A DNA stretch of 64,000 nt from Candidatus Marinacidobacterium sp. (GTDB taxonomy: Bacteria; Acidobacteriota; Vicinamibacteria; Marinacidobacterales; Marinacidobacteraceae): contig OZ252286.1 in NCBI GenBank assembly GCA_965250045.1, positions 2,870,317 to 2,934,316 of the forward strand. The letters run 5' to 3'. This document shows, piece after piece, positions 464-43,146 of the stretch (position 1 is its first letter; every line of letters starts with the position of its first letter). The notes under the pieces are model-generated. The model saw only the letters and a list, made by a program, of their open reading frames with translations, was not told the DNA's origin and did no database searches. The position numbers were made by a program, and so were the translations under genes.

Positions 464-1192
464 TCATCTCGTGGCGGTGTAGGCGATCACTGGCGGATTG
501 TTGAGGAAATCGTCCCAGAAGGGGTTGCCCCGCTCGGCCGGGTGGAGCGAGACGCCGAGCCAGCGGAAATCGTGGAATCCCGCCTCCGCGAACGCTTCCG
601 CGTAAGTCTCCGGTCTCAGGAAGTAGTTTTCGAACCCGAATTGCCGGCCGTCGTTGTTGGTGAACCGGTAGCGGATGGGAGCCCCCTCGCGAAGGACGGG
701 AGGTCCCGTCTTCTCGATGCCGTACTTCTGCAGGGAAACTGTGCCCCGCGGGGGCTTCAGCACGTTGTCGTTGAATCCGACGAGCCGCCCCCCGGGCCGG
801 AGCGCCCCGTGACAGACGCCGAGGAAGCGGCCGAGTTTTTCCGCGCTCCCCGCGTAGTGCAGCAGATACATCGCCACCACCAGGTCCACCGGCCCGGCGG
901 GTCGGTAGTCGGCCGCGTCGGAACAGACGTAGCGGCATCCCAGCGGGTTCTCGTTCTCCTGCCGCTCGGCCAATCGGATCATCGCTTCGGAGATGTCCAC
1001 TCCCGCGACCTCCGCGGCGCCTCGGCGCTTCAGTAGCCGGGTGTAGAAACCCTCGCCGCAGGCGAGGTCCAGCACGGTCTGGCCGTGCACCTCCCCAAGG
1101 GCCTCGAACAGCGTGTAACGCTCGATGTACTTCCGGAAAGGAAGCTGTTTCGAGTCCCGGTAGGCGTCGGCGATCGCGTCGTACTGAGCCAT
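464..1192 (-). CDS. Class I SAM-dependent methyltransferase
   Basis: Start trimmed to the ATG at 1190-1192 (MAQYDAIADAY...); 'VLDLACGEGFYT' SAM-binding motif I; the upstream 130 aa of the ORF look like non-coding GC-rich translation. Confidence 0.7.
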   Translation of the reverse strand: MAQYDAIADAYRDSKQLPFRKYIERYTLFEALGEVHGQTVLDLACGEGFYTRLLKRRGAAEVAGVDISEAMIRLAERQENENPLGCRYVCSDAADYRPAGPVDLVVAMYLLHYAGSAEKLGRFLGVCHGALRPGGRLVGFNDNVLKPPRGTVSLQKYGIEKTGPPVLREGAPIRYRFTNNDGRQFGFENYFLRPETYAEAFAEAGFHDFRWLGVSLHPAERGNPFWDDFLNNPPVIAYTATR

Positions 1193-1279
1193 GGCGGGCC
1201 GAGGATATCCACGGAAGGGATAATGGGGAACGCAGTGGCGGGTCCGACTACAACCCGCCCAGCACGCGGAGGATCCGGT

Positions 1280-3472
1280 GTGAAGTCCCTTCCTTTCCTT
1301 GCAGCCACGCTCGCGCTTCTCGTCGCGCCAGTCGTCGGAGCCCAGGAGGACCCCGGAGAGGCCCTCCGGAGCGCCGCCCGGGAGGGCGACCTGGGGCGGG
1401 TCGAAGAGTTGCTCGCCGGGGGCGCATCCGTTGATGCCCCCAACCGCTACGGAGCGACCGCCCTCTTCTTCGCCGCCGACCGGGGACACCTGGAGGTCGT
1501 CAGGCGCCTCGCCGACGCCGGGGCCGATATTGACCTCTCCGACCGGTTCTACCAGATGACCGCGCTCAGCCGGGCGGCGGGTTCCGGACATCGCGAGGTG
1601 GTGCTCTTTCTCCTGGGAAGGGGCGCGGCGGGTGCGGGGTCGGTCCTCCTCCGGGCGGCGCGCGGGGGTGACGAGGGGTTGCTACGCGCGGTCCTCGAGA
1701 ACGGGAACTTCGACGAGGACGCGCTGTCCGCCGCCCGAGAAGCTGCCGCCTCGGATGATGTGTCGGCGCTGCTCCGGGGGCGCACCGCACGCGCGGTCGC
1801 CGCTCCGGAGCTGACCGAGGAGGCCCGGCGGCGACTCGCCGGCAGCTACTGGAACGAGACCATCGAGCGGGGGGTCCTGGTCACCGCCGAGGATGGAATG
1901 CTTCGGGCGCAGCACTTCGAGCGGGATGCTGATTCCGGGAATGACCGCTTCGCCGCGCCGGCGGTGGTGCTCACCCCACGCGGGGGGCCTCGCTCGTTCG
2001 TGACCGACGAAGGGGGGGATCGCTACGGGTTTCAGGGCCGCGGCGGGATGGTCGAGAACCTGATCGTGGAACGGGGCGGCGAGCCCGTCACCTACCCGCC
2101 GGAGGGGGAGACGGAGGGCCGCGCTGCGGCGAGGGAGACCGCGGAAGCTCCGGTCGAAGCGGACTTGGCCCCCGGGGATCTGGCGCCGATACGGGCGCGC
2201 CCGTGGCCGCAGTTCCGAGGCCCCGGCGGCTCCGGAATCGCGGATGAGCAAGGGGTACCGCTCCGTTGGAACGCCTCCGAGGGCACGGGGATCGCTTGGG
2301 AGGCGCCCCTGCCGGGGCTCGGCATCTCGAGTCCGATCGTGTGGGGCGACCGGGTGTTCGTGGTCGTGGCGGCAAGCCTCACGGAGGACTCGGAGTTCCG
2401 TATCGGCCTTTACGGCGATGTCGCCCCGGTACAGAACGACAGCGAACACCGCTGGGAACTCCGGGCGTACGACGTCTCGACCGGTGAGCCGGTCTGGACC
2501 AGGGAACTCCGGCGAGGCGTGCCCAAAACGCGTCGCCACACGAAGTCCAGCCAGGCGAACGCGACCCCGGTAACCGACGGCGAACGGATCGTGACCCTGA
2601 TCGGCAGCATGGGCGTGTTGATGTGTCACGACCTCGAAGGGAACCTGCTATGGGAGCGAGAAGTGGGCGTCCTGAACAGCGGCTGGTTCTACGACCCCGA
2701 CTACCAGTGGGGGCACGCCTCCTCGCCGGTCATCCACGACGGCGCGGTGATTGTGCTTGCCGACGTTCACGGCGAAGCTTTCCTCGGCGCGTTTGAGCTC
2801 GACACGGGGGAGCCCCGGTGGCGGGCGGCCCGGGACGAGGTCTCCACCTTCTCGACCCCGCTGGTCCACGAGATTTCCGGGGGCGCCGAAATCGTGGTGA
2901 ACGGCACGGTGATCCGCGGGTACGACGCGGCGACCGGCGCCGAGCGCTGGCGCCTCGGTCCCAATTCGGAAATCCCGATCGGCGTCCCGCTGCTTGGAGA
3001 CGGACTCCTGTTCTTACAGGCGGGTTATCCGCCGATCCGGCCCATCTACGCGATCCGCCCCGGCTCGGAAGGGGACCTGAGCCTCACTCCAGGCGAGGAC
3101 TCGAGCGAGGCGATCGCCTGGAGCAAGAACCGGGGTGGGGTCTACATCCCCTCGCCACTCTTCTACCGCGGCGTTCTCTATCTGAACGCCAACAACGGCC
3201 GGCTCTCAGCCTACGACGGCGAGACCGGAGAACGTCTCTACCGGGCCCGGATCGGAGGGGTAGGGGGTTCGTATGCGGCTTCCCCGATCGCCGCGGACGG
3301 CCGGCTCTACTTCACGTCGGAGGAGGGGGAGACGTTCGTGGTCCGCGCTGGGCGCGATTACGAACTCCTCGCGCGGAACAGCGTGGACCGGATCGTGATG
3401 GCCTCTCCGGCAGCGAGCGGCGGCGTGCTGGTCGTCCGCGCGATCGACCGGCTCTACGGGATCGTCCGCTAA
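1280..3472 (+). CDS. Secreted ankyrin-repeat plus PQQ-like beta-propeller (BamB-like) protein
   Basis: GTG start gives signal peptide KSLPFLAATLALLVAPVVGAQE; ankyrin repeats (GATALFFAADRGHLEVVRRLADAGADID); C-terminal half has repeated 'DG.LY' propeller blades. Start choice is uncertain. Confidence 0.6.
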   Translation: MKSLPFLAATLALLVAPVVGAQEDPGEALRSAAREGDLGRVEELLAGGASVDAPNRYGATALFFAADRGHLEVVRRLADAGADIDLSDRFYQMTALSRAAGSGHREVVLFLLGRGAAGAGSVLLRAARGGDEGLLRAVLENGNFDEDALSAAREAAASDDVSALLRGRTARAVAAPELTEEARRRLAGSYWNETIERGVLVTAEDGMLRAQHFERDADSGNDRFAAPAVVLTPRGGPRSFVTDEGGDRYGFQGRGGMVENLIVERGGEPVTYPPEGETEGRAAARETAEAPVEADLAPGDLAPIRARPWPQFRGPGGSGIADEQGVPLRWNASEGTGIAWEAPLPGLGISSPIVWGDRVFVVVAASLTEDSEFRIGLYGDVAPVQNDSEHRWELRAYDVSTGEPVWTRELRRGVPKTRRHTKSSQANATPVTDGERIVTLIGSMGVLMCHDLEGNLLWEREVGVLNSGWFYDPDYQWGHASSPVIHDGAVIVLADVHGEAFLGAFELDTGEPRWRAARDEVSTFSTPLVHEISGGAEIVVNGTVIRGYDAATGAERWRLGPNSEIPIGVPLLGDGLLFLQAGYPPIRPIYAIRPGSEGDLSLTPGEDSSEAIAWSKNRGGVYIPSPLFYRGVLYLNANNGRLSAYDGETGERLYRARIGGVGGSYAASPIAADGRLYFTSEEGETFVVRAGRDYELLARNSVDRIVMASPAASGGVLVVRAIDRLYGIVR

Positions 3473-11292: not shown

Positions 11293-12717
11293 TCAGATCG
11301 GCGGCAGCTCCTCGTGCCAGGCGGTGCGCTCCTGGTAGGCGTGGGCCACCTGGAGTAGCCGAGCCTCGGCGAAGGGCGGCCCGTAGATCTGGAGGGCCAG
11401 CGGCCGCGCCGGAGCCTCGGCGGAGAACCCGCAACCCATCGTGAGGCCGGGGTATCCGGTCATATTGCCGATAAAGGTGTTTCCAGGACGGCTGGTCACT
11501 TCGTCGGGGTTGGCGCCGGCGCGGACGTCGCTCCGTGCCGCTTCCTCCGAACGCAGCGGATCTGCAGGGGAGAAGGAGCTCGGCACGATCATCACATCGC
11601 ACTGTCGAAAGACCTCGGCCATCTCCTGTTGCAGGATGGTCCGTACCCGGAGCGCCTTGATGTAGTCGGTAGCCGGATAGAACTTGGCAACCTCCAGGCG
11701 TTCGCGCACCAACGGATCAAGGTCCTCGGGCTGCTCGGCGAGACGTTTTTCGTGGAACGTCGCCGCCTCCGCCATCGCGACGATCCAGCCGGCGCTTCCC
11801 GCCAGCTGGGCGTGCGGCACCGAAACCTCCACCGTTTCCGCGCCGTCGGCGCTGAGAAGTCCGATCGCGGTGTGGACGGCCTCCTGGACCTCTTCGGTGG
11901 CCGCCTCGACGAACCCGGAAACCGGAACCCCGATCCGAAGCCCGGCCACCTCCGGAGTAAGCGCCGCGAGGTAGTCCGGAACCGGCTCGTTCGCCGCCGT
12001 GGGGTCGCGGGGATCGGGACCCGCGATGGCCCCGAGCATCGCCGCAGCGTCCCACGCGGTCCGGGTCATGGGCCCGGCATGGTCCAGGGTCCAACTCAGG
12101 GTGGTGACCCCGAAGCGGCTGATGCGGCCGTAGGTCTGCTTGAGGCCGACGATGCCGCAGGCGGCTGCCGGCCCGCGGATCGAGCCGCCGGTGTCGGTAC
12201 CGATCGAGAGAGGCACCTGCCGGGCCGCGAGCGCCGCTCCGGAACCGGAAGAGGAGCCGGAGGGCGTGTAGTCGGTGGCCCAGGGGTTACGGGCCGGGCC
12301 GAATCCGGAGAGCACCCCACTTCCCATCGCGAACTCAAGGAGGTTGAGCTTGCCGACCAGAATGGCCCCGGCGTCATTCAGCCTTGCGGTGATCGTGGAT
12401 TCGTAGTCCGGCACCCAATCCGCGGTGGCCTTCGAACCGTTCGTGGTCAGGATGCCGGCCGTTGCCAGGATGTCCTTCGGGGCATATGGAATCCCGTGTA
12501 AGGGACCCCGCCACCTGCCGGCGGCGATCTCCGTCTCCGCTTCGCGGGCCCGTTCCCGGGCGTGGTCGCCGGTAACGGTGATGAAGGAGTTGATGGCGGG
12601 ATCCGTCGCCTCGATGTGGGCGAGGTGGGCATCCACCACTTCGACGGGTGAAAGCTCCTGGCGGCGGATGCGCTCCGAGAGCGCGCGGGCGCTGAGACGG
12701 CAGAGTTCAGGGATCAT
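11293..12717 (-). CDS. Amidase (amidase-signature family, GatA-like)
   Basis: Amidase-signature region GGSSSGSGAALAARQVPLSIGTDTGGSIRGPAAACGIVGLKQTYGRIS. Confidence 0.8.
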   Translation of the reverse strand: MIPELCRLSARALSERIRRQELSPVEVVDAHLAHIEATDPAINSFITVTGDHARERAREAETEIAAGRWRGPLHGIPYAPKDILATAGILTTNGSKATADWVPDYESTITARLNDAGAILVGKLNLLEFAMGSGVLSGFGPARNPWATDYTPSGSSSGSGAALAARQVPLSIGTDTGGSIRGPAAACGIVGLKQTYGRISRFGVTTLSWTLDHAGPMTRTAWDAAAMLGAIAGPDPRDPTAANEPVPDYLAALTPEVAGLRIGVPVSGFVEAATEEVQEAVHTAIGLLSADGAETVEVSVPHAQLAGSAGWIVAMAEAATFHEKRLAEQPEDLDPLVRERLEVAKFYPATDYIKALRVRTILQQEMAEVFRQCDVMIVPSSFSPADPLRSEEAARSDVRAGANPDEVTSRPGNTFIGNMTGYPGLTMGCGFSAEAPARPLALQIYGPPFAEARLLQVAHAYQERTAWHEELPPI

Positions 12718-13028
12718 TCTTCCTCCGGGCCGCGCGCCACGAACATCACGGACGGCTCGACCAGGTCCGGAATTTCGAGATCCCGGACCGCCCGGAAGAA
12801 CGCGCGGTTCATTCGTACCGCCGGGAGAATCGTTGAAAGACGCTCGAAGGGCAGGGGGTGATCGATCATGCTGTTCGCGTATTCGAGCGCCGTGACGGTG
12901 GGGCCGTCACCAGGTTCCGGTCCGGCTCCACAACCCGCCAGAAACAGCGGAGCGGCGACCGGAGCGGCCGCCGCGCTCCCGAGGAGGCGCCGGCGCGTGA
13001 TGGTCTTGGGCTTTGTCCGCTTGGTCAT
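12714..13028 (-). CDS. Small Tat-signal lipoprotein, hypothetical
   Basis: RRRLLGSAAAAPVAAPLFLAGCGAG (twin-arginine signal plus lipobox); 4-nt overlap with the amidase start. Confidence 0.45.
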   Translation of the reverse strand: MTKRTKPKTITRRRLLGSAAAAPVAAPLFLAGCGAGPEPGDGPTVTALEYANSMIDHPLPFERLSTILPAVRMNRAFFRAVRDLEIPDLVEPSVMFVARGPEEE

Positions 13029-13243: not shown

Positions 13244-13969
13244 GTGCTGCTTCGAGAGGCGGATCGGACCGCGGTCCGGGAACATTTCGAGGCCCTCGCC
13301 GGGCTCGTCACTGCGACTCTTTATTCCCGGCAAGACAGCCCGCCGGCCGTGCCCGGTCGCACGCCCTGTCCGACCTGCGCCACCACCGAAGCCTTGCTGC
13401 GGGAGGTCGAAGCGCTGTCGGACAAACTCACCGTCGACGTACGGGACGTGGATGAAGCGCCGGATGCGGCCCGGAATGCCGGGATCGCCCGCCTTCCGGC
13501 GATCGAGCTGACCGGCGTGGCAAAGGGAAGAGTCCGCTTCGTGGGCCTGCCCGATGGCCACGAATTCGGGTCGTTAATCCGTGCAGCCGGGTGGGTCTCC
13601 GGAGCACCGCTGACTCTCTCCGCGGAAACCACGGAGCAGTTGTCGGCACTTCGCCGGCCTCTACACGTCAAGGTCTTCACCACCCCTACGTGACCTTGGT
13701 GTGCGCCGGCGGCCAGTCTGGCCGTCCAGTTCGCGGTCATTAGCCCCGAGGTGACCACCGACATCGTCATGGTTCAGGAATTTCCCGATCTGGCGCGGAC
13801 CTACGCGGTGGCTTCGGTGCCGCTGACCGTGGTCGAACCGCTGGAAGACGGCGCCGGATTGGTCGGGCAGGGGACTTCGGTGCTGGGCGCGCGAGGAGAG
13901 GAGGTCTTCCTCTCGGCAGTCGCTGAGGTGGGGGAGATCGGGAATTCGAATCAGGATCCGGGATCGTGA
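13244..13969 (+). CDS. Glutaredoxin-like protein-disulfide oxidoreductase (PDO family, two thioredoxin folds) with in-frame TGA 13691-13693 at the second CxxC; predicted selenoprotein (U-P-W-C)
   Basis: ORFs 13244-13693 and 13751-13969 are in the same frame and separated only by TGA. The protein aligns to the PDO pattern ...RFVGLPDGHEFGSLI...VKVFTTPT-[TGA]-PWCAPAASLAVQFAV...VMVQEFPDLARTYAVASVP, with the TGA exactly where the first Cys of CPxC lies. The first domain has an ordinary CPTC. A hairpin lies 15 nt downstream. Confidence 0.6.
13708..13726 (+). promoter_or_regulatory. Candidate bacterial SECIS hairpin downstream of UGA 13691
   Basis: GGCGGCC-AGUCU-GGCCGUC: 7-bp stem (one G-U pair), 5-nt loop containing GU, starting 15 nt after the UGA. 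Confidence 0.4.
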
Positions 13970-15471
13970 GCATTCATCGTCCTCGGTATCCCCGAGCCGA
14001 CTGGCGCCTCGACCGGCGCCGGGCGCTGCGCATTCTCTCTGGAGGAGCGGCGCTCGCCATTGGGGCTCCGGCCCTCGGAGGAGAAACGGCCCCACCCTTC
14101 TCCGAGGACGCGCTTGCCGACCTCAGCCGCCGACTCCACGCGGTTCGGAGGCGATTCGGTCTGCGCCGGGCCATCGGCATTCACGTGGAGGACCTCGAGA
14201 CCGGCGCACCGCTCTTCAGCCACAACGCGGACCGAACCTACGTGCCGGCCTCCGGGATGAAGCTGCCCATCATGGCGGCCTGCCTTCACTATCTGGGGCC
14301 TAGCTACCGCTTTCCGACGCGCCTTCTGGTGGACGCACCGCCGACCGAGACCGGGGTTATCGAAGGTCCGGTCTACGTTGTGGGTTCCGGCGACCCCAGC
14401 CTGAATCGGCACGACATGGACTTCATCGCGGACTCCCTGGCGGCGTTCGGGATTACCCAAGTCCGTGGGGACATCGTTCTGGACGACTCGTTTTTCGAAG
14501 CCCAGGAGACCGATCAGGCCCTGGTGAAGCGCCGGCTCCGATACAAGGAGCCCATTCAGAGCGCTCTCGGCTATCACTGGAACCAGGTCGAGGTGGCGGG
14601 GGTCCCGGGACAGGCCGACCGGCCCGACGTGCGCGATGAAGGGTATGGCTATTACACCGTCCAGAACCAGATGGTGCTCCGCAATTCCGGACGGCCCTAC
14701 ATCCTGGCCCAGCGCCGGGGAACGCGCCGGATCCGTCTGCAGGGACGAATCCTCAGAAACGGCAATGAGCGCGTCGCGCGTTTCACCGCTACCGAACCGA
14801 CCCTCTATTTCGGGTACGCCCTCAAGGGCAAACTCGTCGAGCGCGGAGTCTTGGTAGCCGGGGAACCACGGCGCGGTGCGATTCCGGCGTCGGGGGACAA
14901 ACTCCTTCTCTACCGAAACGAATCCGCCCCGCTGACCCAGGTCCTGGAGGCGCTCGGCAAATACAGCAACAACTGGTCCGCCGAGCAATTGCTCTTCGCC
15001 GTCGGCGCCCATCGATGGGGGCCTCCCGGGACCGGTGAGAAGGGGATTCGAGCCACCGAGGAGTACCTGGTGGGTCTCGGTTTCCCCGCCGACACGTTCA
15101 CGGTCGACGACGGCTCGGGGCTCTCGAGAAAGAACCGCGTGAGCGCCCGCCTCCTCGTTGCGGTTGTCCGCGACCTGTACAGCCAGCCGGAACTCCGGAC
15201 CGACTTCCTGTGCTCACTCGCCGTTTCCGGAGTGGACGGCACCCTCGCCCGCCGCCTCTGGGGAGAAGAAACCCTCGGCCGGGTGATGGCCAAGACGGGA
15301 ACGCTGAGCGGCGTCAGTTCGCTCTCGGGCGTAGCCTTCCCGCTGGCAGCCGAGAACCGGGCGCTCGGTTTTTCGGTGATGACGAACGGCATCCGCAACT
15401 CGTGGAATGGCGACGCGGTCGAAAACCTGATCGCCGCCGAGCTGGTCCGGTGGGACGGCGTTTCCACCTGA
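13966..15471 (+). CDS. dacB: D-alanyl-D-alanine carboxypeptidase/endopeptidase (PBP4, peptidase S13)
   Basis: ATGA overlap with the upstream gene; Tat-like signal RRRALRILSGGAALAIGAPA; S13 motifs (SGMKLP, GSGDPSL, KTGTLSGVSSLSG). Confidence 0.8.
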   Translation: MSIHRPRYPRADWRLDRRRALRILSGGAALAIGAPALGGETAPPFSEDALADLSRRLHAVRRRFGLRRAIGIHVEDLETGAPLFSHNADRTYVPASGMKLPIMAACLHYLGPSYRFPTRLLVDAPPTETGVIEGPVYVVGSGDPSLNRHDMDFIADSLAAFGITQVRGDIVLDDSFFEAQETDQALVKRRLRYKEPIQSALGYHWNQVEVAGVPGQADRPDVRDEGYGYYTVQNQMVLRNSGRPYILAQRRGTRRIRLQGRILRNGNERVARFTATEPTLYFGYALKGKLVERGVLVAGEPRRGAIPASGDKLLLYRNESAPLTQVLEALGKYSNNWSAEQLLFAVGAHRWGPPGTGEKGIRATEEYLVGLGFPADTFTVDDGSGLSRKNRVSARLLVAVVRDLYSQPELRTDFLCSLAVSGVDGTLARRLWGEETLGRVMAKTGTLSGVSSLSGVAFPLAAENRALGFSVMTNGIRNSWNGDAVENLIAAELVRWDGVST

Positions 15472-16619: not shown

Positions 16620-17042
16620 TTAGAGCCGAATCTTGGCCGGGAAGTGGTTCAGCCCGAGGCGCGTCGCCGTGCGGTCCGTCTGGTCCACGATCGCGGCGGC
16701 GTTGATGCCGATCGCGATGACGATGGCTTCGCTGATCTCTTCCTTGGTGGCCCCGAGTTTGAGGGCCTTCTTCACATGACCGTCGAGGCATCCCTCGCAC
16801 TTGGCGATGAGCGAGCAGGCGAGGGCGATCAGCTCCTGGATCTTCGGATCCAGATGCTTGTTCTCCGAAAAATAGGTCTCTTTGTAGAACTGACCGTAGA
16901 TGGCCTTCATCCGCGGCTCGAGCATCGAATACGACGTCGGGGCCGAGCCATCCTGCTTTTGGTCCTTTTCCTGATCGCGCTGCCCCGGCTCGTGGTCGAT
17001 GCCGGGAATCCGCGCCTCGGGGGCCGCTACGTTGTCCGCCAT
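16620..17042 (-). CDS. Carboxymuconolactone decarboxylase family protein (AhpD-like, CxxC)
   Basis: 'ALACSLIAKCEGCLDGHVKKALKLGATKEEI' CMD/AhpD core. Start trimmed to the Met with an upstream GAGG. Confidence 0.65.
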   Translation of the reverse strand: MADNVAAPEARIPGIDHEPGQRDQEKDQKQDGSAPTSYSMLEPRMKAIYGQFYKETYFSENKHLDPKIQELIALACSLIAKCEGCLDGHVKKALKLGATKEEISEAIVIAIGINAAAIVDQTDRTATRLGLNHFPAKIRL

Positions 17043-17196
17043 GCCGAATGTTGCCTCGTGCCCGCCGCTTTTGGCCGGGACTTCGTCTCGGGGGACGGCG
17101 GGTGGGACGGCCACTTGTCTGGCGCCGCCCGCTCAGCGCGTCGAAAAGGGAGTAACCGGTGAAGGTTAGCATCAGGGAAACGATGCAGACCTTCCG

Positions 17197-17699: not shown

Positions 17700-17992
17700 G
17701 GACACCGCGGACGCGCTTATCGGCCAGGGTGCCGTGAGTGCCTTGAGAATTGGTGCTGTTCGCCGCCTGCGGCGGCGAGTGCCGGTCTGAATACCAGGTC
17801 TGAAGACCGGCGTTCCCAAGCCACGCCAGCGGCTTCGGATAGGCACCGCACCCTTATCGGACGTCGCAAAGGGCCGGCGCGCTTCCGGATTGAGGCTCAA
17901 TCCTTATCGAAAGTCGCCTTCGCGACAAACCGGGGCGCGCCTATCGGATGCCGCGAAGCGGCTTCGGATAGGCACCGCACCCTTATCGGACG
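17700..17992. repeat. Tandem array of ~125-bp repeat units (left part, interrupted by IS insertion)
   Basis: Units of form 'ggcttcggataggcaccgcacccttatcggacgtcgcRaaggg...atccttatcgaaagtcgccttcgcgac...tatcggatgccgcg', with YTTATCGGAYG sub-repeats every ~30 bp. The array continues at 32111. Confidence 0.7.
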
Positions 17993-19380
17993 GAGCTATG
18001 GTCGAAAGTGGGTGACGTCGGGAGAAAGGGGTGGCGTATCGTGGGAGTAACCAACCTTCCACATCTCCAAGGAGGAGTGATACGCCATGACGGAGAGTAC
18101 CGTTGTTTTCCTTCCCTCAGCAGAGGGAGTTGAGGATCCGCTGACGGAGGTTCTGCGAGCGGGAGCCCGCGAGCTGGTGAGGCACGCGGTGGAGGCGGAG
18201 GTGGCGGCGCTGCTGGTGGCGTATGAGGATCACCGGACCGGAGGCGGCCGTCGGCGCGTGGTGCGTCACGGGCATGGCCCGGAGCGGGCGATCCTGACGG
18301 GGATCGGTCCGGTACCGGTGCGTCGGCCGAAGGTTCGGGACCGGGGTGGCGCGGGAGAGGATCGTGTCCGGTTCTCTTCGCGGATCCTGCCGCGATTCGC
18401 GCGGCGGACGCGCTCGCTGGACGCGGCGCTGCCGACGCTGTATCTGCTGGGAGTATCGAGCGGGGACTTTGGGGAAGCGCTGTCGGAGCTGTTGGGTTGT
18501 GGGGCCTCGGGGCTGTCGCCGGGCGTGATCGGCCGTTTGAAGGCGGAGTGGGAGTCGGAACACGAGCGCTGGCGTCTGCGGGATCTGTCGGACCGGCGGT
18601 ATGTCTACGTGTGGGCGGACGGGATCTACCTTCAGGGCCGGCTGGAAGACGAAAAGCAGTGCGTTCTGGTGCTGATCGGGGCGACGCCGGAGGGCAAAAA
18701 GGAACTGCTGGGGTTCCAGACGGGGTTCCGGGAGAGCGCCCAGAGTTGGCGGGAACTGCTGGAGGATCTCAAGGGGCGTGGCCTCCAGATCCCCCCGGAG
18801 CTGGCGATCGGGGACGGAGCTCTCGGCTTCTGGAAGGCGCTGGACGAGGTCTTCCCCAAGACCCGCCGCCAGCGCTGCTGGGTCCACAAGACCGCGAACA
18901 TACTGAACGCGTTGCCCAAGTCCCGGCACCGGAACGCCAAGCAGGACCTGCATCAGATCTGGATGGCGGAGGGGCGCGCCGAGGCGGAGCAGGCGATGGA
19001 CACCTTCGAGGCCAAATACCAGGCCAAGTATGGGAAGGCGGTCACCTGCCTGACCAAGGACCGCGACGCCCTGCTGGCCTTCTACGACTTCCCGGCCGAG
19101 CATTGGCAGCACATCCGGACCACCAACCCCATCGAGAGCGTCTTCGCTACCGTCCGGCATCGGACCGTTCGTAGCAAGGGATGCCTCTCTCACAAGACCG
19201 CACTGGCGATGGTCTTCAAACTGGTCATCGCTGCCAGCAAGACCTGGCGCCGCCTCAACGGCTACGAGCAGTTGCCCCGGCTCATCCAGGGCGTCAAATT
19301 TACCGACGGCATTCAAGCCGACGAAACCGAAACCCGCGCCGCCGCCTGATCATGTTGTCACCCACTTTCGGCCATAGCTC
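17993..19380 (+). mobile_element. IS256-family insertion sequence, copy 1 (1388 bp)
   Basis: Terminal inverted repeats GAGCTATGGTCGAAAGTGGGTGACG / CGTCACCCACTTTCGRCCATAGCTC; encodes a 420-aa transposase. Confidence 0.85.
18087..19349 (+). CDS. IS256-family (mutator-type) transposase
   Basis: 420 aa; typical IS256 architecture with catalytic region ...VWADGIYLQ...CWVHKTANILNALPK... Confidence 0.85.
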   Translation: MTESTVVFLPSAEGVEDPLTEVLRAGARELVRHAVEAEVAALLVAYEDHRTGGGRRRVVRHGHGPERAILTGIGPVPVRRPKVRDRGGAGEDRVRFSSRILPRFARRTRSLDAALPTLYLLGVSSGDFGEALSELLGCGASGLSPGVIGRLKAEWESEHERWRLRDLSDRRYVYVWADGIYLQGRLEDEKQCVLVLIGATPEGKKELLGFQTGFRESAQSWRELLEDLKGRGLQIPPELAIGDGALGFWKALDEVFPKTRRQRCWVHKTANILNALPKSRHRNAKQDLHQIWMAEGRAEAEQAMDTFEAKYQAKYGKAVTCLTKDRDALLAFYDFPAEHWQHIRTTNPIESVFATVRHRTVRSKGCLSHKTALAMVFKLVIAASKTWRRLNGYEQLPRLIQGVKFTDGIQADETETRAAA

Positions 19381-19822: not shown

Positions 19823-20862
19823 ATGACGGAGAGTACCGTTGTTTTCCTTCCCTCAGCAGAGGGAGTTGAGGACCCGCTGACGGAGGTTCTGCGAGCGGGG
19901 GCCCGTCAGTTGGTGAGGCACGCCGTGGAAGCGGAGGTGGCGGCGCTGCTGGCGGCCTACGCCGATCATCGGACCGAGACGGGCCGTCGGCGACTGGTGC
20001 GTCACGGGCATGGCCCGGAGCGGGAGATCCTGACGGGGATCGGGCCGGTTCCGGTGCGGCGGCCGAAAGTACGGGACCGCGGAGGCGGGGGGGAGGATCG
20101 GATTCGGTTTTCCTCGACGATCCTGCCGCGTTTCGCGCGCCGGACGCGCTCGTTGGACGCGGCGCTGCCGACGCTGTATCTGCTGGGAGTGTCGAGCGGG
20201 GACTTCGGGGAGGCGCTGTCGGAGCTTGTGGGTCCGGGGGCCTCGGGGCTGTCGCCTGGTGTGATCGGTCGTTTGAAGGCGGAGTGGGAGGCTGAGCACC
20301 AGCGCTGGCGTGCGCGGGATCTCTCGGATCGGCGGCATGTGTATGTCTGGGCGGACGGGATCTACCTTCAGGGGCGTCTGGAGGACGAGAAGCAGTGCGT
20401 TCTGGTGCTGATCGGGGCAACGCCGGAGGGCCGGAAGGAGCTGTTGGGGTTCCAGACGGGGTTCCGGGAGAGCACCCAGAGCTGGCGGGAGCTGCTGGAG
20501 GACCTGAAGGGGCGCGGCCTCTCGATCCCCCCGGAGTTGGCGATTGGCGACGGGGCTCTCGGGTTCTGGAAGGCGCTGGATGAGGTCTTCCCGAAGACCC
20601 GCCGCCAGCGCTGCTGGGTTCACAAGACGGCGAACGTGTTGAACGTGTTGCCCAAGTCCCGGCAGCGGAATGCAAAGCAGGATCTGCATCAGATCTGGAT
20701 GGCGGCGAGCCGCGCCGAGGCGGAGCAGGCGATGGACACCTTCGAGGCCAAATACCACGCGAAGTATGCGAAGGCGGTCCCCTGCCTGACCAAGGACCGG
20801 GAGGCGTTGCTTGCGTTCTACGACTTTCCGGCCGAGCACTGGCAGCACATCCGGACCACGAA
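19823..20862 (+). pseudogene. IS256-family transposase of copy 2, interrupted (N-terminal 346 codons; C-terminal remnant 22635-22857)
   Basis: Collinear with the copy 1 transposase until the nested IS insertion point. Confidence 0.75.
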
Positions 20863-22625
20863 GGACTGTCAGAAATTCCGTGTGTAGGCCGGCGATTTTG
20901 GAAACTGGGCTTGGTTTGCTTCCCGGCATTGTATGACCGGGCCGATGGGGATCTGGCCGGCGCGCCCGAGGGGGCCAGCCGGGGGCGGGTAGGGACGCCG
21001 GGGGTTTTTGGAGTTCAAGGAGAGGGGCGGCGCCCGAGGCTCTCCACGGGCCAAACCTCTCCAGCAAACTCCAAGCTCCAAGGAGAGCCTGTGGGAAGGG
21101 TGGGAAACGCGTCCCGCTCCCCGAATCGTCCGGCAGCAAGGCGCGATGCGGTTCCAGCGTTTTCCAAGTCCTGGGGGAATCGCTCCGGACGAAGCGGTCC
21201 CTCGCGATCCGGTCGCCACGGGCGCCGCGATTTCCCCGGGACGGCGCTTTCCACGGGCTCAAGGCGGCGCTTTCGCGAACCCGCCGGGGGCCGTGAGGCG
21301 GACCGGCCGCCGCGCCCCGGGGGGCGGCACGCGGCGGGCTCACACGACCTCCACCGGGAATCGGTCCCCGAACAGGATGGCGAACTCGGCCCGCGCCTGG
21401 AACCAGTAGATCTGCGGCCGCTGCCACTTCCGCTCGATCTTCCGCAGCGTCAGGTAGATCAGCTTCGCCGCCGCCCGGTCGTTCGGAAAGTGGCCCCGCG
21501 TCCGTACCGCCCGCCGCACCGTGCTGTTCAGGCTCTCGATGGCGTTCGTCGTGTAGATCACCCGCCGGATCGGCGCCGAAAACGCGAAGTACGGGATCAC
21601 CTGCGTCCAGTTCCGCCGCCAACTCCGCACGATCGCCGGGAACTTCCGGCCCCAGGCACCCGCCTCGAACGCGTCCAGCGCCTCCTCCGCCTCCTCCAGC
21701 GTGTCCGCCCGGTAGATCGGACGCAGCGCCGACGCCAGCTCCTTGCGCTCCTTCCAGGACGCGTGCGCCAGCGAATACCGGATCAGGTGCACCACGCAGG
21801 TCTGCACCGTCGCCTCCGGAAACGCCGCCTCGATCGCCTCCGGAAACCCCTTCAGCCCGTCCACCACCACGATCAACACATCCCGAACGCCCCGCGCCTT
21901 CAGCTCGTTCATCACCCCCAGCCAGAACTTCGCCCCCTCGTTCGCCGCCGTCCACATCCCCAGGATCTCCTTCCGCCCCAGCGCCGTCACCCCGATCGCC
22001 AGGTGCACCGCCTTGTTCTGAACCAAACCCTCCTCCCGGATCTTCACCCGCAACGCGTCGAAATACACGATCGGATACACCGCCTCCAACGGCCGCGAAC
22101 GCCACTCCCGCAGCTCCTCGTGAACCTCGTCCGTCACCTTCGAGATCAACTCCCGAGACACCGTAACCCCATACAACTCCTCCACATGCGCCCGGATCTC
22201 CCGCGTCGTCATCCCCCGCGCATACAGCGAAATCACCTTCTCGTCGAACCCCGGTAGACGACGAACCCACTTCTCGATCAACTGCGGCTCAAAACGTCCC
22301 CCTCGATCCCGCGGAACCGCCAACTCCACCGATCCCGCCCCCGTCAACACCCGCTTCCGGTTGTGCCCGTTCCGGTGGTTCCCTGACCCCACCTCCTCCT
22401 CCCGCGAAAGGTGCAACTCCATCTCCACCTCCAGCGCACGCTCCGCCAGCGACTTCTGAAGCGCCGCAAACAACTCCCCGCTCCGGAGCGCCTCCCGTGG
22501 ATCCTCTCCCCCCAGAAGCTCGTCCAAAAGCTCTCCGCCGATCCGACTCTGCCGTCGCGTCATCTCTCTTCTCCTTAGCTCGTCTAGGTTACGCCCCTCC
22601 TACACACGGAATTTCTGACAGGCTC
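20863..22625 (-). mobile_element. Second, unrelated IS256-family IS nested inside copy 2; 9-bp TSD GACCACGAA
   Basis: TIRs GGACTGTCAGAAATTCCGTGTGTAGG / CCTACACACGGAATTTCTGACAGGCTC. GACCACGAA is duplicated at 20854-20862 and 22626-22634. Confidence 0.75.
21340..22563 (-). CDS. IS256-family transposase (second family)
   Basis: 407 aa; classic IS256 transposase (…VYPIVYFDALRVKIREEG…VDGLKGFPEAIEAAFPEATVQTCVVHLIRYSL…). Confidence 0.85.
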   Translation of the reverse strand: MTRRQSRIGGELLDELLGGEDPREALRSGELFAALQKSLAERALEVEMELHLSREEEVGSGNHRNGHNRKRVLTGAGSVELAVPRDRGGRFEPQLIEKWVRRLPGFDEKVISLYARGMTTREIRAHVEELYGVTVSRELISKVTDEVHEELREWRSRPLEAVYPIVYFDALRVKIREEGLVQNKAVHLAIGVTALGRKEILGMWTAANEGAKFWLGVMNELKARGVRDVLIVVVDGLKGFPEAIEAAFPEATVQTCVVHLIRYSLAHASWKERKELASALRPIYRADTLEEAEEALDAFEAGAWGRKFPAIVRSWRRNWTQVIPYFAFSAPIRRVIYTTNAIESLNSTVRRAVRTRGHFPNDRAAAKLIYLTLRKIERKWQRPQIYWFQARAEFAILFGDRFPVEVV

Positions 22626-23924
22626 GACCACGAACCCCATCGAGAGCGTCTTCGCCACCGTCCGGCATCGCACTGTTCGCAGCAAGGGATGCCTCTCCCA
22701 CAAGACGGCGCTGGCGATGGTCTTCAAGCTGGTCATGGCCGCCAGCAAGACCTGGCGCCGGCTCAACGGCTACCAACATTTGCCCCGGCTCATCCAGGGC
22801 GTCAAATTTACCGACGGCATTCAAGCCGACGAAACCGAAACCCGCGCCGCCGCCTGATCATGCCGTCACCCACTTTCGACCATAGCTCCTCGTCGGAGCC
22901 TTCACCCCTCAATGGCGAAATTTCGTTAAGCGGCAGGAGGCGCCACGAACAGCGGAAGCGCCCCCGGCGTGCGGTCCATCCGCCTCGCCGTCTCCGGGGC
23001 GTTAACTCGTGTCATGAATGAAGGCTTCGGTGGCCCGAACTATCAAGTCGTTTCTCCGTAACCACTTGGGAATGCTCGACTTTCTCGGCTTCACTCCCCG
23101 ATTCAGCCAGGATGCGGCGCCTCTTGCGGTGCCGGAGGTAGCCTTGGGCCAGGATCGAGGCGATCTCCGCGACGACCTCGTCGAGGGCGTCGGGGATGGG
23201 TGGGTTGCTCGGCATCCGGTTCTCCTCCTCGCGGGCGCCGCGAAAGAGGAGGCGTCGTGGATGCCGGACGGGACGGAATGGTCGTCAGGAGCCGTTGGAG
23301 TCCGCTCGACACCGCGCGCGGGCGATGTCGCCGGCACCCACAACGGGCTCCGTTCTCACGGCCGCTGCCGCTGTCTGGTGATCAGCCGGCCCCCCGTGGC
23401 CCGGCTTCCGCTGGATACCTACCGGCGCCGGTTAGGAAATGTCGAAACGCGGGGGCCCTTGGCAAAACGGGCTGTTAAACAACGCGGAGCGAAAAATGGA
23501 GAATCGGAGAATTCGGAAACGAAATCGCGGGGTCCCCATGCGCAACCCCCCTGGTTGCACGCGGCACCCCGCGTGGATCTTCCTAACCGGAGAATCGAGG
23601 AGAATGTGGGAATGGGCGTAACTGCTTGGAACAACGGTAGATACGACGAAGCCCCGGAGGGGTCACCCTCCGGGGCTTCGCGTTAACTATCGAGGCACTT
23701 TAGTTCGTCCTCGAAAAAATGGCTCCCCTTGCGCAACTTTCCCTTGTTCCGATCCAGCAATTTCGAGGCGGAAGCGTTGTCAAGCCCATTTCCGCCCCGC
23801 TGGTCAAAAAAGGCCCATCTCCAACGTCGGGACCAGGATATCTGGGTCGTCGTTCACCCTGGTGCTGACGGCGGGCCGCCCGTAGGGACCGGCAGGGGTT
23901 CACCCACTGCTCGGGGTCAGCTCC

Positions 23925-26900
23925 TCAGAAGGGGATCGACATTCGCACCATCACCGCTAGATCAGTCGGACCCGTTCTGTTCTTCCGCCTCGTGGCTTCC
24001 ATTTCCAACCTCAATGGCAGCGCCAGCTGCGAGCGTGGAGGCAGGCTACAAGCGGTCCCCCAGGCCAGCTCCCGGCCCTGTCCGGCCCAGCGCAGCCGGC
24101 TATAGGGCGTCAGCAGACACGGTAAGCCCAGCGCCTTCAGGCCGCCGTAGGCCACCTCGCTTTCCATCCGCGACTGCGAACCCATTCCCGCGGCATCCAT
24201 TCCCACCGGGTGCGTGACCATATTAGCGTTGTTCCATAGCGTCGTTCGGCCGCCTCCATCCTGGCCCCGCGAGGAGTTCACCGACACCCGCAACCCGCGC
24301 TGCTTCTCCCCCGGGTCCCAGCTCACCTGCAAGCCCGCACCCCAGTCCCGGTAGTCACTCTCATGCACCACCAGCACCCGCCCGTACAGCGCCGCGTCCA
24401 GGCCACTGTGCGCGTCCAGATACCCCAGACGGAAACCGGTTTCCATCCCAGCGCCCCGATCCGCGTCGCCCCGGTCAAAACGCCCGCCCGCTTCCGCCGT
24501 CAGGCTCAGTGACCGACCCGCCGACAGCGCCGCGTCATGCACCCACTCCAGCATCAACCGGCCCCGCTGGGCTTCACCGCGCACCGCCGCGATGTCCGCC
24601 AACGCGTCGGTCCCCAGTTGCGTCGTGAAGGCATCCGCGCGCACACCCCACTCATTGCTGCCCCGCCCCCCGAGCACCGCCCGCACGCCCCCGGCGAACA
24701 TCCGAAACTCGGCGCCGAAGTCGTGCGTCCGGCCCGGCTCTTCCACCTCCACTTGACCCTGTCCCAAGCCGCCAATGCCCCACACGCTCAACCGCGCGCT
24801 CGGCTGCCAGTACACATACGGGTGAACCGTGTTCATCCGACTCTCCAGCAACCCCGCCACCCCATCGTCCGTGTACTCCAGGTCCCCCCAGCTGCGCATG
24901 AACGACAGCCCCGCCAGAACCCGATCGTTGGCATACAGGTCCAGACCTACATGCGCGGCTTCGAGACCGCCGCCATAGTCCATACCCAGCCGCGTCAAGT
25001 CGCCGTTGAAGCGCTGCAGATCACCCTGGGCCCACATTACCGGCACCCAACTCGTCTCGCCCTCGCTCTCTCCCAGGGACATCTCGAACGACGCTCCAGA
25101 AAGGTTGAGCGCTTGCCCCACCATGGCCGAGTACCCAGCCGATCCCGCGTCCCTGGTCCCAGCACCCGGGATGAGCTCTTGATCCCGCATCCCGGAGAAG
25201 TCCCCCGAGCCCGGTCCCAGCCGCGCGTCTCCAAACCCGGAACCAAAGTGTCGATCCTGACCGGAGACTCGCCCGCCAGGCGCCGCACCGTAGCCGGAAG
25301 ACATGGCCGAGCCGCTCTGGGCGGCGCGCGCGAGGTTCTCAAACGAACCCAGCACCACATTGCGCAGCCACGAGACGGGCGTGCCGGTCTCCCGATGCTC
25401 CGAGTTCCAATCCGATCCCGTTGCCGCGCTGGTCCGGGCTGCGCCGGCCTGGTCTGCGCCCCGCGCGTGCTCAACCAAGGAGCCTTCTGCTCCTCTGCCG
25501 CCGCTGCCCTCACTGCCTACCCGCTCCGATTCGCCCGCGCCCAGAGCCGCCGCGCGATTGGCGCGCCCCGGCTGCAATGTCGATACCGCCCCACCCGACG
25601 ACCCCAGACGACTCCACTGCCGATGCCGCTCAAAGCGACCCTCTATCGCCGTCTGCGCGCTCGCTCCCATCGAGCGTCCCATCACCGCCAACATCGCCTC
25701 CAGCGAGGACGTGAACTGCTCCGCCGTCCGCCGCTGTCTGAAGCTCACTCTTGTCTCCGAGAGCTCTCCGCCGCTCACCGCCTCCGGCAATACGCCCAGG
25801 CTCAGCACGATCCCCTCCCCGGGATCGCTCACTTCATCCGTCAGCACCTCCACGGAAATCGTCCCCTCACGCTCGCCTTCCTCGAACACCAACGTCGACG
25901 GCACTTCCTGAAAGTCCTCGGGCGTCGTCCCGCCTTCGAGCGCCACCACGAGCGGTATCTCCAGCCGCCGGTCCGCGGCCGGGGAAACTGTCACCTTGAT
26001 CTCTGCCACCTCGCCTTCCTGCACTTCATACGCTGCCTGCCCAAAGCTCACCACGAGCTCCACCAGCCCCTTGTCTTCGAGCGTCACTATCGCCACGGCC
26101 GGTTCCCCGGCCAGCACGATCTCCGGCAGCTCCCCAAAGCCCAGCTCCACCGTCTCGTCGTCCCCATCCCCATCATGGTTGGCTGCAATCGTGAAGGTCT
26201 GTTCCGTCGCGCCGGCCCCGAAGGTAAGCGTTCCCGTGCCCGCCTCGGCATCCCAATCCTTCAACCCCTCGACCTGGTAGTCGCCTACTTCCGTCGTCTC
26301 CGGCCGCGTCACCCGGACCGGAATCGCCAACTCTTCGTCACCCGCCTTGCTCAGCTTCACCGTCACCGTCACCGACTCCCCACCTTCGGTTGCCGTGTAG
26401 CTCTCCGCCGCATAGCTCACCACAATGCCTGTCGCAATGACGAACGGCGCCGCCGCCTCATTGCCGTTGCTGGCGGCGTCCTCAGCCACATCCTCGGCAA
26501 CCTCCACCACCACCGGCTGTCCCACCACCGTCGGCTCGATTGTGGCTCGATACTCACTCGATGACACCGCGGTGAAGTCCGCTACCGTCCCGTTGGTGAC
26601 CTGAATATCGCTCTGCTCGAAACCCGTGACCGCCTCGCTAAAGGTGATCGTTACCTCGAACGCACCCCCCACCGGTCCCGCGGCCGCGCTGGTGATCTCC
26701 ACCTTCGGTGGGGCCGCCGCCTCGCTCGTGATCGCCACCGTGGGGCCGGCGCGGTCCCTCGCCGCGGCCCGGTGGACCTTGATGGTGTAGGTCTGAGTGG
26801 GCGTCCCGTCCGCGGCAGTCACCTGCACCGGGATGGAGGTTGCAGCACCCAAGGCCAGGGCAATCGCGTCACTGGCGCTCCGGCTCGCCACCACGCTGCC

Positions 26901-30722: not shown

Positions 30723-32110
30723 GAGCTATGGTCGAAAGTGGGTGACGTCGGGAGAAAGGGGTGGCGTATCGTGGGAGTAACCAACCTTCCACATCTCCAA
30801 GGAGGAGTGATACGCCATGACGGAGAGTACCGTTGTTTTCCTTCCCTCAGCAGAGGGAGTTGAGGATCCGCTGACGGAGGTTCTGCGAGCGGGAGCCCGC
30901 GAGCTGGTGAGGCACGCGGTGGAGGCGGAGGTGGCGGCGCTGCTGGTGGCGTATGAGGATCACCGGACCGGAGGCGGCCGTCGGCGCGTGGTGCGTCACG
31001 GGCATGGCCCGGAGCGGGCGATCCTGACGGGGATCGGTCCGGTACCGGTGCGTCGGCCGAAGGTTCGGGACCGGGGTGGCGCGGGAGAGGATCGTGTCCG
31101 GTTCTCTTCGCGGATCCTGCCGCGATTCGCGCGGCGGACGCGCTCGCTGGACGCGGCGCTGCCGACGCTGTATCTGCTGGGAGTATCGAGCGGGGACTTT
31201 GGGGAAGCGCTGTCGGACCTGTTGGGTTGTGGGGCCTCGGGGCTGTCGCCGGGCGTGATCGGCCGTTTGAAGGCGGAGTGGGAGTCGGAACACGAGCGCT
31301 GGCGTCTGCGGGATCTGTCGGACCGGCGGTATGTCTACGTGTGGGCGGACGGGATCTACCTTCAGGGCCGGCTGGAAGACGAAAAGCAGTGCGTTCTGGT
31401 GCTGATCGGGGCGACGCCGGAGGGCAAAAAGGAACTGCTGGGGTTCCAGACGGGGTTCCGGGAGAGCGCCCAGAGTTGGCGGGAACTGCTGGAGGATCTC
31501 AAGGGGCGTGGCCTCCAGATCCCCCCGGAGCTGGCGATCGGGGACGGAGCTCTCGGCTTCTGGAAGGCGCTGGACGAGGTCTTCCCCAAGACCCGCCGCC
31601 AGCGCTGCTGGGTCCACAAGACCGCGAACATACTGAACGCGTTGCCCAAGTCCCGGCACCGGAACGCCAAGCAGGACCTGCATCAGATCTGGATGGCGGA
31701 GGGGCGCGCCGAGGCGGAGCAGGCGATGGACACCTTCGAGGCCAAATACCAGGCCAAGTATGGGAAGGCGGTCACCTGCCTGACCAAGGACCGCGACGCC
31801 CTGCTGGCCTTCTACGACTTCCCGGCCGAGCATTGGCAGCACATCCGGACCACCAACCCCATCGAGAGCGTCTTCGCTACCGTCCGGCATCGGACCGTTC
31901 GTAGCAAGGGATGCCTCTCTCACAAGACCGCACTGGCGATGGTCTTCAAACTGGTCATCGCTGCCAGCAAGACCTGGCGCCGCCTCAACGGCTACGAGCA
32001 GTTGCCCCGGCTCATCCAGGGCGTCAAATTTACCGACGGCATTCAAGCCGACGAAACCGAAACCCGCGCCGCCACCTGATCATGTCGTCACCCACTTTCG
32101 ACCATAGCTC
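30723..32110 (+). mobile_element. IS256-family IS, copy 3 (near-identical to copy 1)
   Basis: Same TIRs; transposase differs from copy 1 at only ~2 residues. Confidence 0.85.
30817..32079 (+). CDS. IS256-family transposase (copy 3)
   Basis: 420 aa, ~99.5% identical to 18087-19349. Confidence 0.85.
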   Translation: MTESTVVFLPSAEGVEDPLTEVLRAGARELVRHAVEAEVAALLVAYEDHRTGGGRRRVVRHGHGPERAILTGIGPVPVRRPKVRDRGGAGEDRVRFSSRILPRFARRTRSLDAALPTLYLLGVSSGDFGEALSDLLGCGASGLSPGVIGRLKAEWESEHERWRLRDLSDRRYVYVWADGIYLQGRLEDEKQCVLVLIGATPEGKKELLGFQTGFRESAQSWRELLEDLKGRGLQIPPELAIGDGALGFWKALDEVFPKTRRQRCWVHKTANILNALPKSRHRNAKQDLHQIWMAEGRAEAEQAMDTFEAKYQAKYGKAVTCLTKDRDALLAFYDFPAEHWQHIRTTNPIESVFATVRHRTVRSKGCLSHKTALAMVFKLVIAASKTWRRLNGYEQLPRLIQGVKFTDGIQADETETRAAT

Positions 32111-32335: not shown

Positions 32336-32379
32336 AATAACGAGGTGCAGAGCCAATCGCCAGCCCAGAACGGCCGCCA

Positions 32380-42508: not shown

Positions 42509-42512
42509 CGGC

Positions 42513-43126: not shown

Positions 43127-43146
43127 ATACGTTTCGGCGCAATCTG

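Follow-up and report, generated by a model that had tools for sequence, protein, structure and literature searches.

A protein disulfide oxidoreductase gene with a predicted selenocysteine codon, conserved in a clade of Vicinamibacteria

In the 64,000-nucleotide stretch of Candidatus Marinacidobacterium sp. analysed here (the window; contig OZ252286.1, positions 2,870,317 to 2,934,316 of the forward strand), the sequence from 13244 to 13969 is very probably a single gene for a two-domain disulfide oxidoreductase that has selenocysteine (Sec) at the position of an active-site cysteine, where an in-frame UGA would be recoded with the help of a hairpin lying just 3' of it. The proposal goes back to an earlier reading of the same letters (the original prediction). 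The evidence that carries it consists of an otherwise uninterrupted frame, the alignment of the UGA with a redox cysteine in homologues, the presence of this UGA throughout a clade of Vicinamibacteria, coding selection on both sides of it, and the fit of the hairpin to a published model together with a constraint on its nucleotides. The features concerned, all on the + strand, are as follows (ORF, open reading frame; PDO, protein disulfide oxidoreductase; bSECIS, bacterial selenocysteine insertion sequence).

13244..13969, + strand: predicted Sec-containing PDO coding sequence (PDO / glutaredoxin-like / homologue of the AhpF N-terminal domain), with a GTG start, Sec as residue 150, and the true stop TGA at 13967-13969
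13367..13378, + strand: C-P-T-C, the N-terminal active-site motif (Cys42-Cys45) in the first thioredoxin fold, aligned with CQYC of Pyrococcus PDO
13691..13693, + strand: UGA, predicted selenocysteine, residue 150, at the first (nucleophilic) position of U-P-W-C (13691-13702), aligned with the first Cys of CPHC/CPYC
13708..13726, + strand: bSECIS-type hairpin GGCGGCC-AGUCU-GGCCGUC with GU in the apical loop, proposed on the basis of the fit to the bSECIS model and of codon invariance
13751..13753, + strand: GTG, an internal Val codon at which ORF finders and gene callers begin a spurious 72-aa ORF; not conserved as a start among orthologues
13966..15471, + strand: Peptidase_S13 gene (PBP4/DacB-type D-Ala-D-Ala carboxypeptidase), with a GTG start overlapping the PDO stop (Pfam PF02113, E 2.8e-78)

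The Reading Frame and the Protein Family

The frame from 13244 to 13969 comprises 241 sense codons and a stop, and its sole interruption is the TGA at 13691-13693. ORF finders divide it into a 149-aa ORF (13244-13693) and a 72-aa ORF (13751-13969); that these two share one frame was the starting point of the original prediction, and they do. The TGA stands in the DNA context ...RRPLHVKVFTTPT-[TGA]-PWCAPAASLAVQFAVISPEV..., which in the protein corresponds to ...HVKVFTTPT-[TGA]-PWCAPAASLAVQFAV.... The N-terminal unit does carry the normal CPTC that had been ascribed to it, at 13367-13378, and across the clade, the motif of the first fold is always a CxxC (CPTC, CQTC or CATC). An exact-sequence lookup of the 149-aa ORF of the window found no identical protein on record.

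When the TGA is modelled as Cys, residues 5-228 of the product match positions 2-208 of the 209 positions of the NCBIfam model TIGR02187, “PDO_seleno_TRX: protein disulfide oxidoreductase” (E 6.6e-51, 172.6 bits). Pfam finds Thioredoxin_3 twice, and Thioredoxin_3 and Thioredoxin in two stretches, which correspond to two thioredoxin-type units. Of the solved structures, those that match best are PDOs, from Pyrococcus horikoshii (1J08) and P. furiosus (1A8L) (both E ~1e-20), from Aquifex aeolicus (2AYT, E ~1e-20, and 2YWM) and from Aeropyrum pernix (2HLS), and, more weakly, the N-terminal domain of AhpF (1ZYN, 1HYU). Pfam and the alignment with 1J08 and 1A8L over residues 37-199 both give two tandem thioredoxin folds in a protein of PDO size (~210-240 residues), and the assignment to the PDO/glutaredoxin-like proteins with two thioredoxin folds is borne out by TIGR02187, Pfam, and the PDB matches alike. 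No signal peptide was found in the product, which is therefore presumably cytoplasmic.

The alignments are informative about the TGA itself. In those with the PDB entries, CPTC lies opposite the first PDO site, CQYC, and [TGA]-P-W-C lies opposite the second site, CPYC. Seven full-length database homologues, with 35-41% identity, have VFTTPTCPHCPRAV at the place where the window has VFTTPT[TGA]PWCAPAA, and the redox motif of the second unit, VFTTPT[U]PWC, is matched by VFTTPTCPHC in these homologues (VFTTPTCPHCP) and by FVTPTCPYC in the PDB PDOs. Together, the Cys homologues and the PDOs place the TGA on the first Cys of the second CxxC. In thioredoxin-fold enzymes, the first Cys of CxxC is the attacking one. 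The arrangement is the Cys/Sec pair by which selenoprotein genes are recognised, that is, a UGA opposite a conserved redox Cys, and the comparison with the Pyrococcus PDO family that the original prediction had proposed as a check puts a Cys exactly in the TGA column.

Conservation of the UGA in the Clade

Among 5.8 billion proteins searched, there were 27 close homologues with 72-98% identity, nearly all annotated as exactly 149 aa; they end at the same residue and cover just 62% of the query. On the contigs behind these homologues, a second called gene of 66-72 aa follows directly after the first; in one of them (L004), gene callers chose a different downstream start. A scan of genomes, one per GTDB species, yielded 16 essentially full-length loci with 58-91% identity, all from metagenome-assembled genomes (MAGs) labelled Acidobacteriota, Vicinamibacteria or ‘Candidatus Marinacidobacterium’. 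In these 16 loci, and in five contigs from the protein look-ups, the aligned codon is TGA and the frame stays open into the conserved C-terminal half.

In terms of distinct orthologous coding sequences, all 20 have TGA at this position, and TAA, TAG or a sense codon occurs in none (at least 16 Vicinamibacteria genomes, with at least 58% protein identity). The 20 come from independent assemblies and projects, chromosome-level MAGs among them, and a sequencing error is excluded, since the TGA recurs throughout a clade whose genomes were assembled separately. The more distant relatives, in MAGs labelled Kryptonia and Bacteroidota, have TGC or TGT (CPYC) at the TGA position. The central claim of the original prediction, that a UGA occupies the place of the first Cys of the second CPxC, has in this way been extended from one genome to a clade.

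The Hairpin after the UGA

A hairpin with a 7-bp stem and a 5-nt loop had been described at 13708-13726, and it is present as described, with 7 bp and a 5-nt loop, or with 8 bp and a 3-nt loop if an A-U pair is counted. Its apex is CCAGUCUGG. It lies within all the ranges of the published bSECIS model (PMC13188914, from which the consensus was taken), in which a G stands in the first two positions of the loop. The values are as follows.

Apical loop: model, 3-9 nt; window, 5 nt (or 3 nt, GUC)
Upper stem: model, 4-16 bp; window, 7 bp (or 8 bp)
Loop sequence: model, N1-G-[G/U]-N-N2, with N1 pairing N2; window, A-G-U-C-U
Spacing of the loop from the UGA: model, 16-37 nt; window, 21 nt (or 22 nt)
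Free energy: model, <= -7.5 kcal/mol; window, -12.6 kcal/mol

The stronger evidence comes from the codons in which the hairpin is written. The six codons at 13709-13726 (GCG GCC AGT CTG GCC GTC, for Ala-Ala-Ser-Leu-Ala-Val) are identical at every nucleotide in all 20 sequences. A test of invariance was made with four- or six-fold-degenerate codons, the comparison being with 71 other codons of the gene that specify invariant amino acids in the same degeneracy classes: All six hairpin codons are invariant, against 4 of these 71 (Fisher p = 8.9e-7). The Ser codon in the loop, AGT, is a rare one, with 8% of the Ser codons in the genes of the window. The hairpin is under selection at the level of nucleotides, beyond what the coding constraint would impose. 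RNAalifold, run with 17 sequences, recovered the same helix; in the Cys-type homologues, no corresponding hairpin was found.

A search of the window for look-alikes of the hairpin (GGCCAGTCTGGCC, with up to two mismatches) gave 6 hits for 3.8 expected. The possibility that the hairpin is an intrinsic terminator was ruled out because no U-run follows it (…GUCCAGUUCGCGG).

Points against a Selenocysteine Codon

Several observations count against the interpretation of the UGA as a Sec codon. The window is 66% GC, and 196 of its 1399 TGA trinucleotides come with a hairpin that satisfies the model, the hairpin being as strong as that at 13708-13726 for 40 of them (~3% of the 1399); moreover, in a shuffle test, the fold of the hairpin was no better than those of the shuffles (z = -1.06). 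Taken alone, the hairpin is therefore weak evidence, and it is its conservation that exceeds chance. RNAalifold, with the same 17 sequences, found 0 compensatory pairs in it. The absence of covariation is due to the invariance of the stem, which is why the argument from the hairpin is based on invariance at synonymous sites. No Rfam SECIS match was obtained either in the whole window at gathering thresholds or in 13600-13850 at E<=10, where chance hits to WT1-AS_1 and sR44 were the only ones; since SECIS elements of bacteria lack the length and uniformity that such a scan would need, this null result does not count against the hairpin. The TIGR02187 score falls ~12 bits short of the NCBI curated (equivalog) cutoff of 185 bits, and the product, which is clearly homologous over the full length, is for this reason best described as a divergent subfamily member of TIGR02187.

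The remaining points concern the machinery. No selA, selB, selC or selD was detected in the 64-kb window, either in Pfam scans of ~40 ORFs or with ARAGORN, which found no tRNA at all. A member of the clade for which a gene inventory exists is ‘Acidobacteria bacterium bin61’, a symbiont bin from the sponge Aplysina aerophoba, whose contig MPMW01000037.1 carries one of the orthologues (L013). For this bin, Table S4 of Slaby et al. 2017 gives COG0709 (SelD) = 0, the bin being ~70% complete. In favour of Sec decoding, on the other hand, the same table gives COG1921 (SelA) = 2 and COG3276 (SelB) = 1 for bin61, and Slaby et al. reported SelA and SelB together in most of their symbiont bins.

Alternative Ways of Reading the UGA

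A 2006 survey documented Sec decoding in the phylum Acidobacteria and counted 4 selenoproteins in 3 families there. A search of the literature on Vicinamibacteria and selenocysteine, and on Marinacidobacterium, found nothing relevant. Among the Pfam-confirmed genes of the window, most have UGA as their ordinary stop, and no other stop is as common there. A global reassignment of UGA was ruled out on this ground: A codon that serves as an ordinary stop has not been globally reassigned. A second selenoprotein gene in the window was also looked for; the 11 same-frame ORF pairs split by a TGA turned out to be antisense shadows or adjacent genes, with no redox motif in a real gene.

A more specific alternative is that the UGA is read through by a route other than Sec insertion, such as an allo-tRNA, a selC*-type tRNA-Cys, or near-cognate decoding by Trp or Cys tRNA, so that a full-length PDO is made with Cys or some other residue at position 150. 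Mukai et al. (PMC5389517) described tRNA(Sec)-like allo-tRNAs in Acidobacteria that are possible nonsense suppressors and, in other phyla, selC* tRNA-Cys species that are possible opal suppressors; the lack of a listed SelD in bin61 and of Sec machinery within the 64 kb would fit such a route. However, general suppression would work without any RNA signal nearby, whereas the nucleotides from 15 to 35 past the UGA are synonymously frozen and fit a SelB-type SECIS element; if efficient, such suppression would also be harmful, UGA being the most frequent of the normal stops in the window. Bin61 has SelA and SelB on record, and Sec at the equivalent position is known elsewhere in the TIGR02187 family. 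Moreover, a Cys codon is only one mutation away, yet TGA has been kept in 20 of 20 sequences. This route is consequently considered very unlikely, and Sec remains the preferred residue.

Selection across the UGA

Another alternative is that the TGA is a true stop, in which case a 149-residue N-terminal protein would be made along with a separate C-terminal fragment of ~72 residues starting at GTG 13751. In its favour, gene callers have annotated two ORFs (149 aa and 66-72 aa) in every public record examined. Under selenium shortage, some termination at a Sec UGA is to be expected in all bacteria.

The ratio of nonsynonymous to synonymous change (dN/dS) bears on this alternative. It was estimated by the pooled Nei-Gojobori method from the 20 sequences, with the phylogeny ignored, and the comparison between segments is fair since all of them lie on the same tree. 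The ratio is 0.20 upstream of the UGA; it is 0.21 for the 19 codons between the UGA and GTG 13751, or 0.15 when the hairpin codons are removed; and it is 0.25 downstream (13751-13966), with 0.16 in the conserved core (13751-13900). In the segment between the two called ORFs, synonymous changes occur at Pro (CCC/CCG/CCT), Cys (TGC/TGT) and Ala (GCG/GCC/GCT/GCA) codons. The codon at 13751 is GTG in 15 of the orthologues, GTC in 3 and GTA in 2, and with such a mixture, it is not a conserved start.

If the TGA were a true stop, the 19 codons before GTG 13751, which hold P-W-C, would not be expected to be held by purifying selection while changing synonymously (dN/dS 0.15-0.21); the putative start would be lost in 5 of the 20 orthologues; TAA or TAG might be expected in place of TGA, and neither occurs; and, to judge from the alignment with 1A8L, a thioredoxin fold that ended ahead of its CxxC helix would be left without an active site. 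A true stop is accordingly given even less weight than read-through by another tRNA. The pattern of selection is that of one translated polypeptide and does not agree with two ORFs or with a pseudogene.

The last alternative, a pseudogene or an assembly or sequencing error in which TGA stands for TGC or TGT, has next to nothing to commend it beyond an extra stop codon in one orthologue, which allows for decay or errors in these MAGs, and it is contradicted by the same TGA in 20 distinct sequences from independent assemblies, by the lack of frameshifts, and by dN/dS values well under 1 on either side of the TGA. The extra stop is an in-frame TAG at codon 217 of L015 (JAPPGX010000081.1, RHO1_bin_67; …VLGA*AEEVF…), a position taken by Gln or Arg in all the other orthologues; an error in the MAG consensus, recent inactivation of the gene, or a variant shortened by the last ~25 residues could each account for it.

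Proposed Mechanism

For the Sec-containing enzyme, the following scheme may be envisaged. The UGA at 13691 would be recoded during translation, with the hairpin at 13708-13726 acting as a bacterial SECIS element. By analogy with established bacterial Sec decoding, we infer that the apex of the hairpin binds the SelB·GTP·Sec-tRNA(Sec) complex, so that Sec would be delivered to the UGA in the ribosomal A site and termination would be avoided. In the finished protein, the U150-C153 pair might cycle between a selenolate/thiol and a selenenylsulfide form, as homology with PDOs and with the N-terminal domain of AhpF would suggest. On the same grounds, the pair would be re-reduced by a flavoprotein of the thioredoxin reductase type and would reduce or isomerise the disulfides of partner proteins. 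No thioredoxin reductase gene was seen adjoining the locus, either in the gene neighbourhood in the window or on the contigs used for synteny. A second site may be provided by the CPTC of the first domain, an arrangement known from Pyrococcus PDO.

The Downstream Gene and the Neighbourhood

The original prediction also had a dacB gene coupled downstream by an ATGA overlap. The gene is indeed a Peptidase_S13 gene of the dacB/PBP4 type; the overlap in the window, though, is GTGA rather than ATGA, since GTG 13966 overlaps the stop TGA 13967-13969. ATGA is found in two of the orthologues, L004 and L013. A 4-nt overlap of the PDO and peptidase genes, as GTGA or ATGA, exists in most of the clade and is absent from L019 and L020, the most divergent members (…ggcTGAg…), which means that any translational coupling is not universal in the clade. 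The synteny of the PDO and peptidase genes is conserved, and a gene for an E1 dehydrogenase component follows the peptidase gene.

Ribosomes that stop at UGA150 never reach the PDO-peptidase junction, and it could be imagined on this basis that the supply of selenium, acting via the efficiency of Sec insertion, gates the translation of the downstream peptidase and possibly that of the E1 dehydrogenase. In that case, the Sec-PDO, fixed in a clade of mostly sponge-associated Vicinamibacteria, would go beyond an ordinary exchange of Cys for Sec. The gene could also encode one of the unnamed selenoproteins behind the reported enrichment of SelA and SelB in sponge symbionts. We regard this extension of the argument as speculative and rather improbable.

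Two neighbouring loci share the conserved surroundings of the PDO gene. A CMD/AhpD-family gene at 16620-17114 on the - strand, with a C-E-G-C motif, is convergent to the operon; its synteny is conserved and it uses Cys. Sec forms are also known among AhpD-like proteins. On the other side, a 104-aa ORF at 12714-13028 (- strand) has a twin-arginine/lipoprotein-like N-terminus (…RRRLLGSAAAAPVAAPLFLAGCG…) and no Pfam family; it overlaps the start of an amidase gene (11293-12717, - strand) by 4 nt, and the pair, which is divergent upstream of the Sec-PDO gene, is kept in all the relatives.

Significance

The splitting of the gene in the public records has a practical consequence: Throughout this clade of Vicinamibacteria, the active-site half of a conserved redox enzyme is lost from the protein databases. 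Automated rescue of selenoproteins would fail as well, because the merged protein scores ~12 bits under the NCBIfam cutoff. If the Sec codon is accepted, Vicinamibacteria become a further host lineage of TIGR02187 selenoproteins, and there would be a concrete selenoprotein to pair with the SelA and SelB retention reported in sponge symbionts; the clade MAGs are largely from sponges or the sea according to their record titles, the sponge association resting also on one paper. The understanding of Sec decoding itself is unchanged.

Other Features of the Window

An insertion sequence (IS) of the IS256/Mutator family occurs four times, as copies or relatives, at 17993-19380, 19729-~21100, ~21300-22895 (inverted) and 30723-32110, with transposase ORFs at 18087-19349, 19823-20887, 21340-22563 (-) and 30817-32079 and with terminal inverted repeats of ~45-50 nt (GAGCTATGGTCGAAAGTGGGTGAC...). 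Where they were compared, the first and last copies show 100% identity; they flank a giant adhesin gene in a layout like that of a composite transposon. Just beyond the outer ends of these two identical copies, at 17828-18001 and 32084-32341, there are repeat units of ~45 nt and 101 nt (families D8 and D9), with 91-93% identity between the two sites.

The gene at 23925-30290 (-), whose DNA has internal repeats of ~267 and 531 nt, encodes a protein of 2121 aa that contains fn3, cadherin-like, Big and Calx-beta domains, and the gene at 1085-3472 (+) encodes a 795-aa protein with ankyrin repeats and a PQQ/BamB-like beta-propeller. Both are of the eukaryote-like/adhesion type reported in sponge symbionts, which is consistent with the relatives being sponge MAGs.

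What looks like a LexA-regulated mutagenesis cassette occupies 48734-55276 (+), with LexA (48734-49369), an unassigned 319-aa ORF that is possibly imuA (49512-50471), a Y-polymerase-like ORF of the impB/mucB/samB family (50449-52071) and a second, DnaE2-like DNA polymerase III alpha (52007-55276). A Tol-Pal-type envelope cluster at 41615-47321 (+) includes MotA/TolQ/ExbB, a protein with a TonB/TolA C-terminal domain, a TolB-like PD40 beta-propeller protein, a Pal-like protein of the OmpA family, and a TPR protein. An SSB ORF of 268 aa at 47357-48163 (+) has its SSB domain only from residue 115 onwards, and its listed start is probably too far upstream.

Comparison with Known Systems

The window hairpin may first be compared with the SECIS element of E. 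coli fdhF. Both are hairpins in the coding region just 3' of a UGA, with a small apical loop that contains GU, and their apices are similar (GCA-GGUC-UGC in fdhF and CCA-GUC-UGG in the window; as strings, CAGGUCUG and CAGUCUG). They differ in that the loop begins 18 nt past the UGA in fdhF as against 22 nt in the window, and in that the upper stem in the window is a perfect GC-rich helix of 7-8 bp. No equivalent of the bulged U of the fdhF element was noted in the window hairpin.

AhpF is a relative of the protein rather than its counterpart. The N-terminal domain is homologous (TIGR03140, E 2.5e-14; 1HYU, 1ZYN), and in AhpF, the redox-active CxxC lies in the second thioredoxin fold, at the place of the Sec motif of the window. 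The window protein, however, has 241 residues against ~520, lacks the FAD/NADH part that resembles thioredoxin reductase, and keeps a CxxC in the first fold. The TIGR03140 score, 52.7 bits against a cutoff of 502.9, comes from the N-terminal-domain part only, and the next gene is that for Peptidase_S13. In the absence of a C-terminal FAD/NAD(P)H module, the window protein is not AhpF.

The solved PDOs of archaea and bacteria (1A8L, 1J08, 2AYT/2YWM, 2HLS) also have two tandem thioredoxin folds with a CxxC-type motif in each. They have Cys at both sites, whereas the window protein is predicted to have Sec at the second; the identity is ~30%, and for the window protein, there is no thermophilic context.

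The closest known system is the family of UxxC selenoproteins of the TIGR02187 type, which is already catalogued and was first listed by Kryukov & Gladyshev. Sec forms are on record in Carboxydothermus hydrogenoformans (ABB15282.1) and Symbiobacterium thermophilum and also in Asgard archaea. The window protein matches the same hidden Markov model, has a single predicted Sec at the first position of UxxC, and stands alone with two thioredoxin folds in ~210-240 residues, this likeness being judged via the shared model. It differs in its host lineage, Vicinamibacteria (Acidobacteriota) instead of Firmicutes, Symbiobacterium and Asgard archaea; in its insertions, PPAVPGRTP and, after the cis-Pro strand, EPLEDGAGLVGQGTS; in its motif, which is UPWC and not CP[YH]C; in a score just under the curated cutoff; and in the conserved linkage of its gene to that of a PBP4-type peptidase. 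Since the decoding mechanism and the family are both already established, this is not a new kind of system; what is new here is a clade of Vicinamibacteria in which the Sec form is fixed, with a UPWC motif, lineage-specific insertions and a uniform misannotation as two ORFs.

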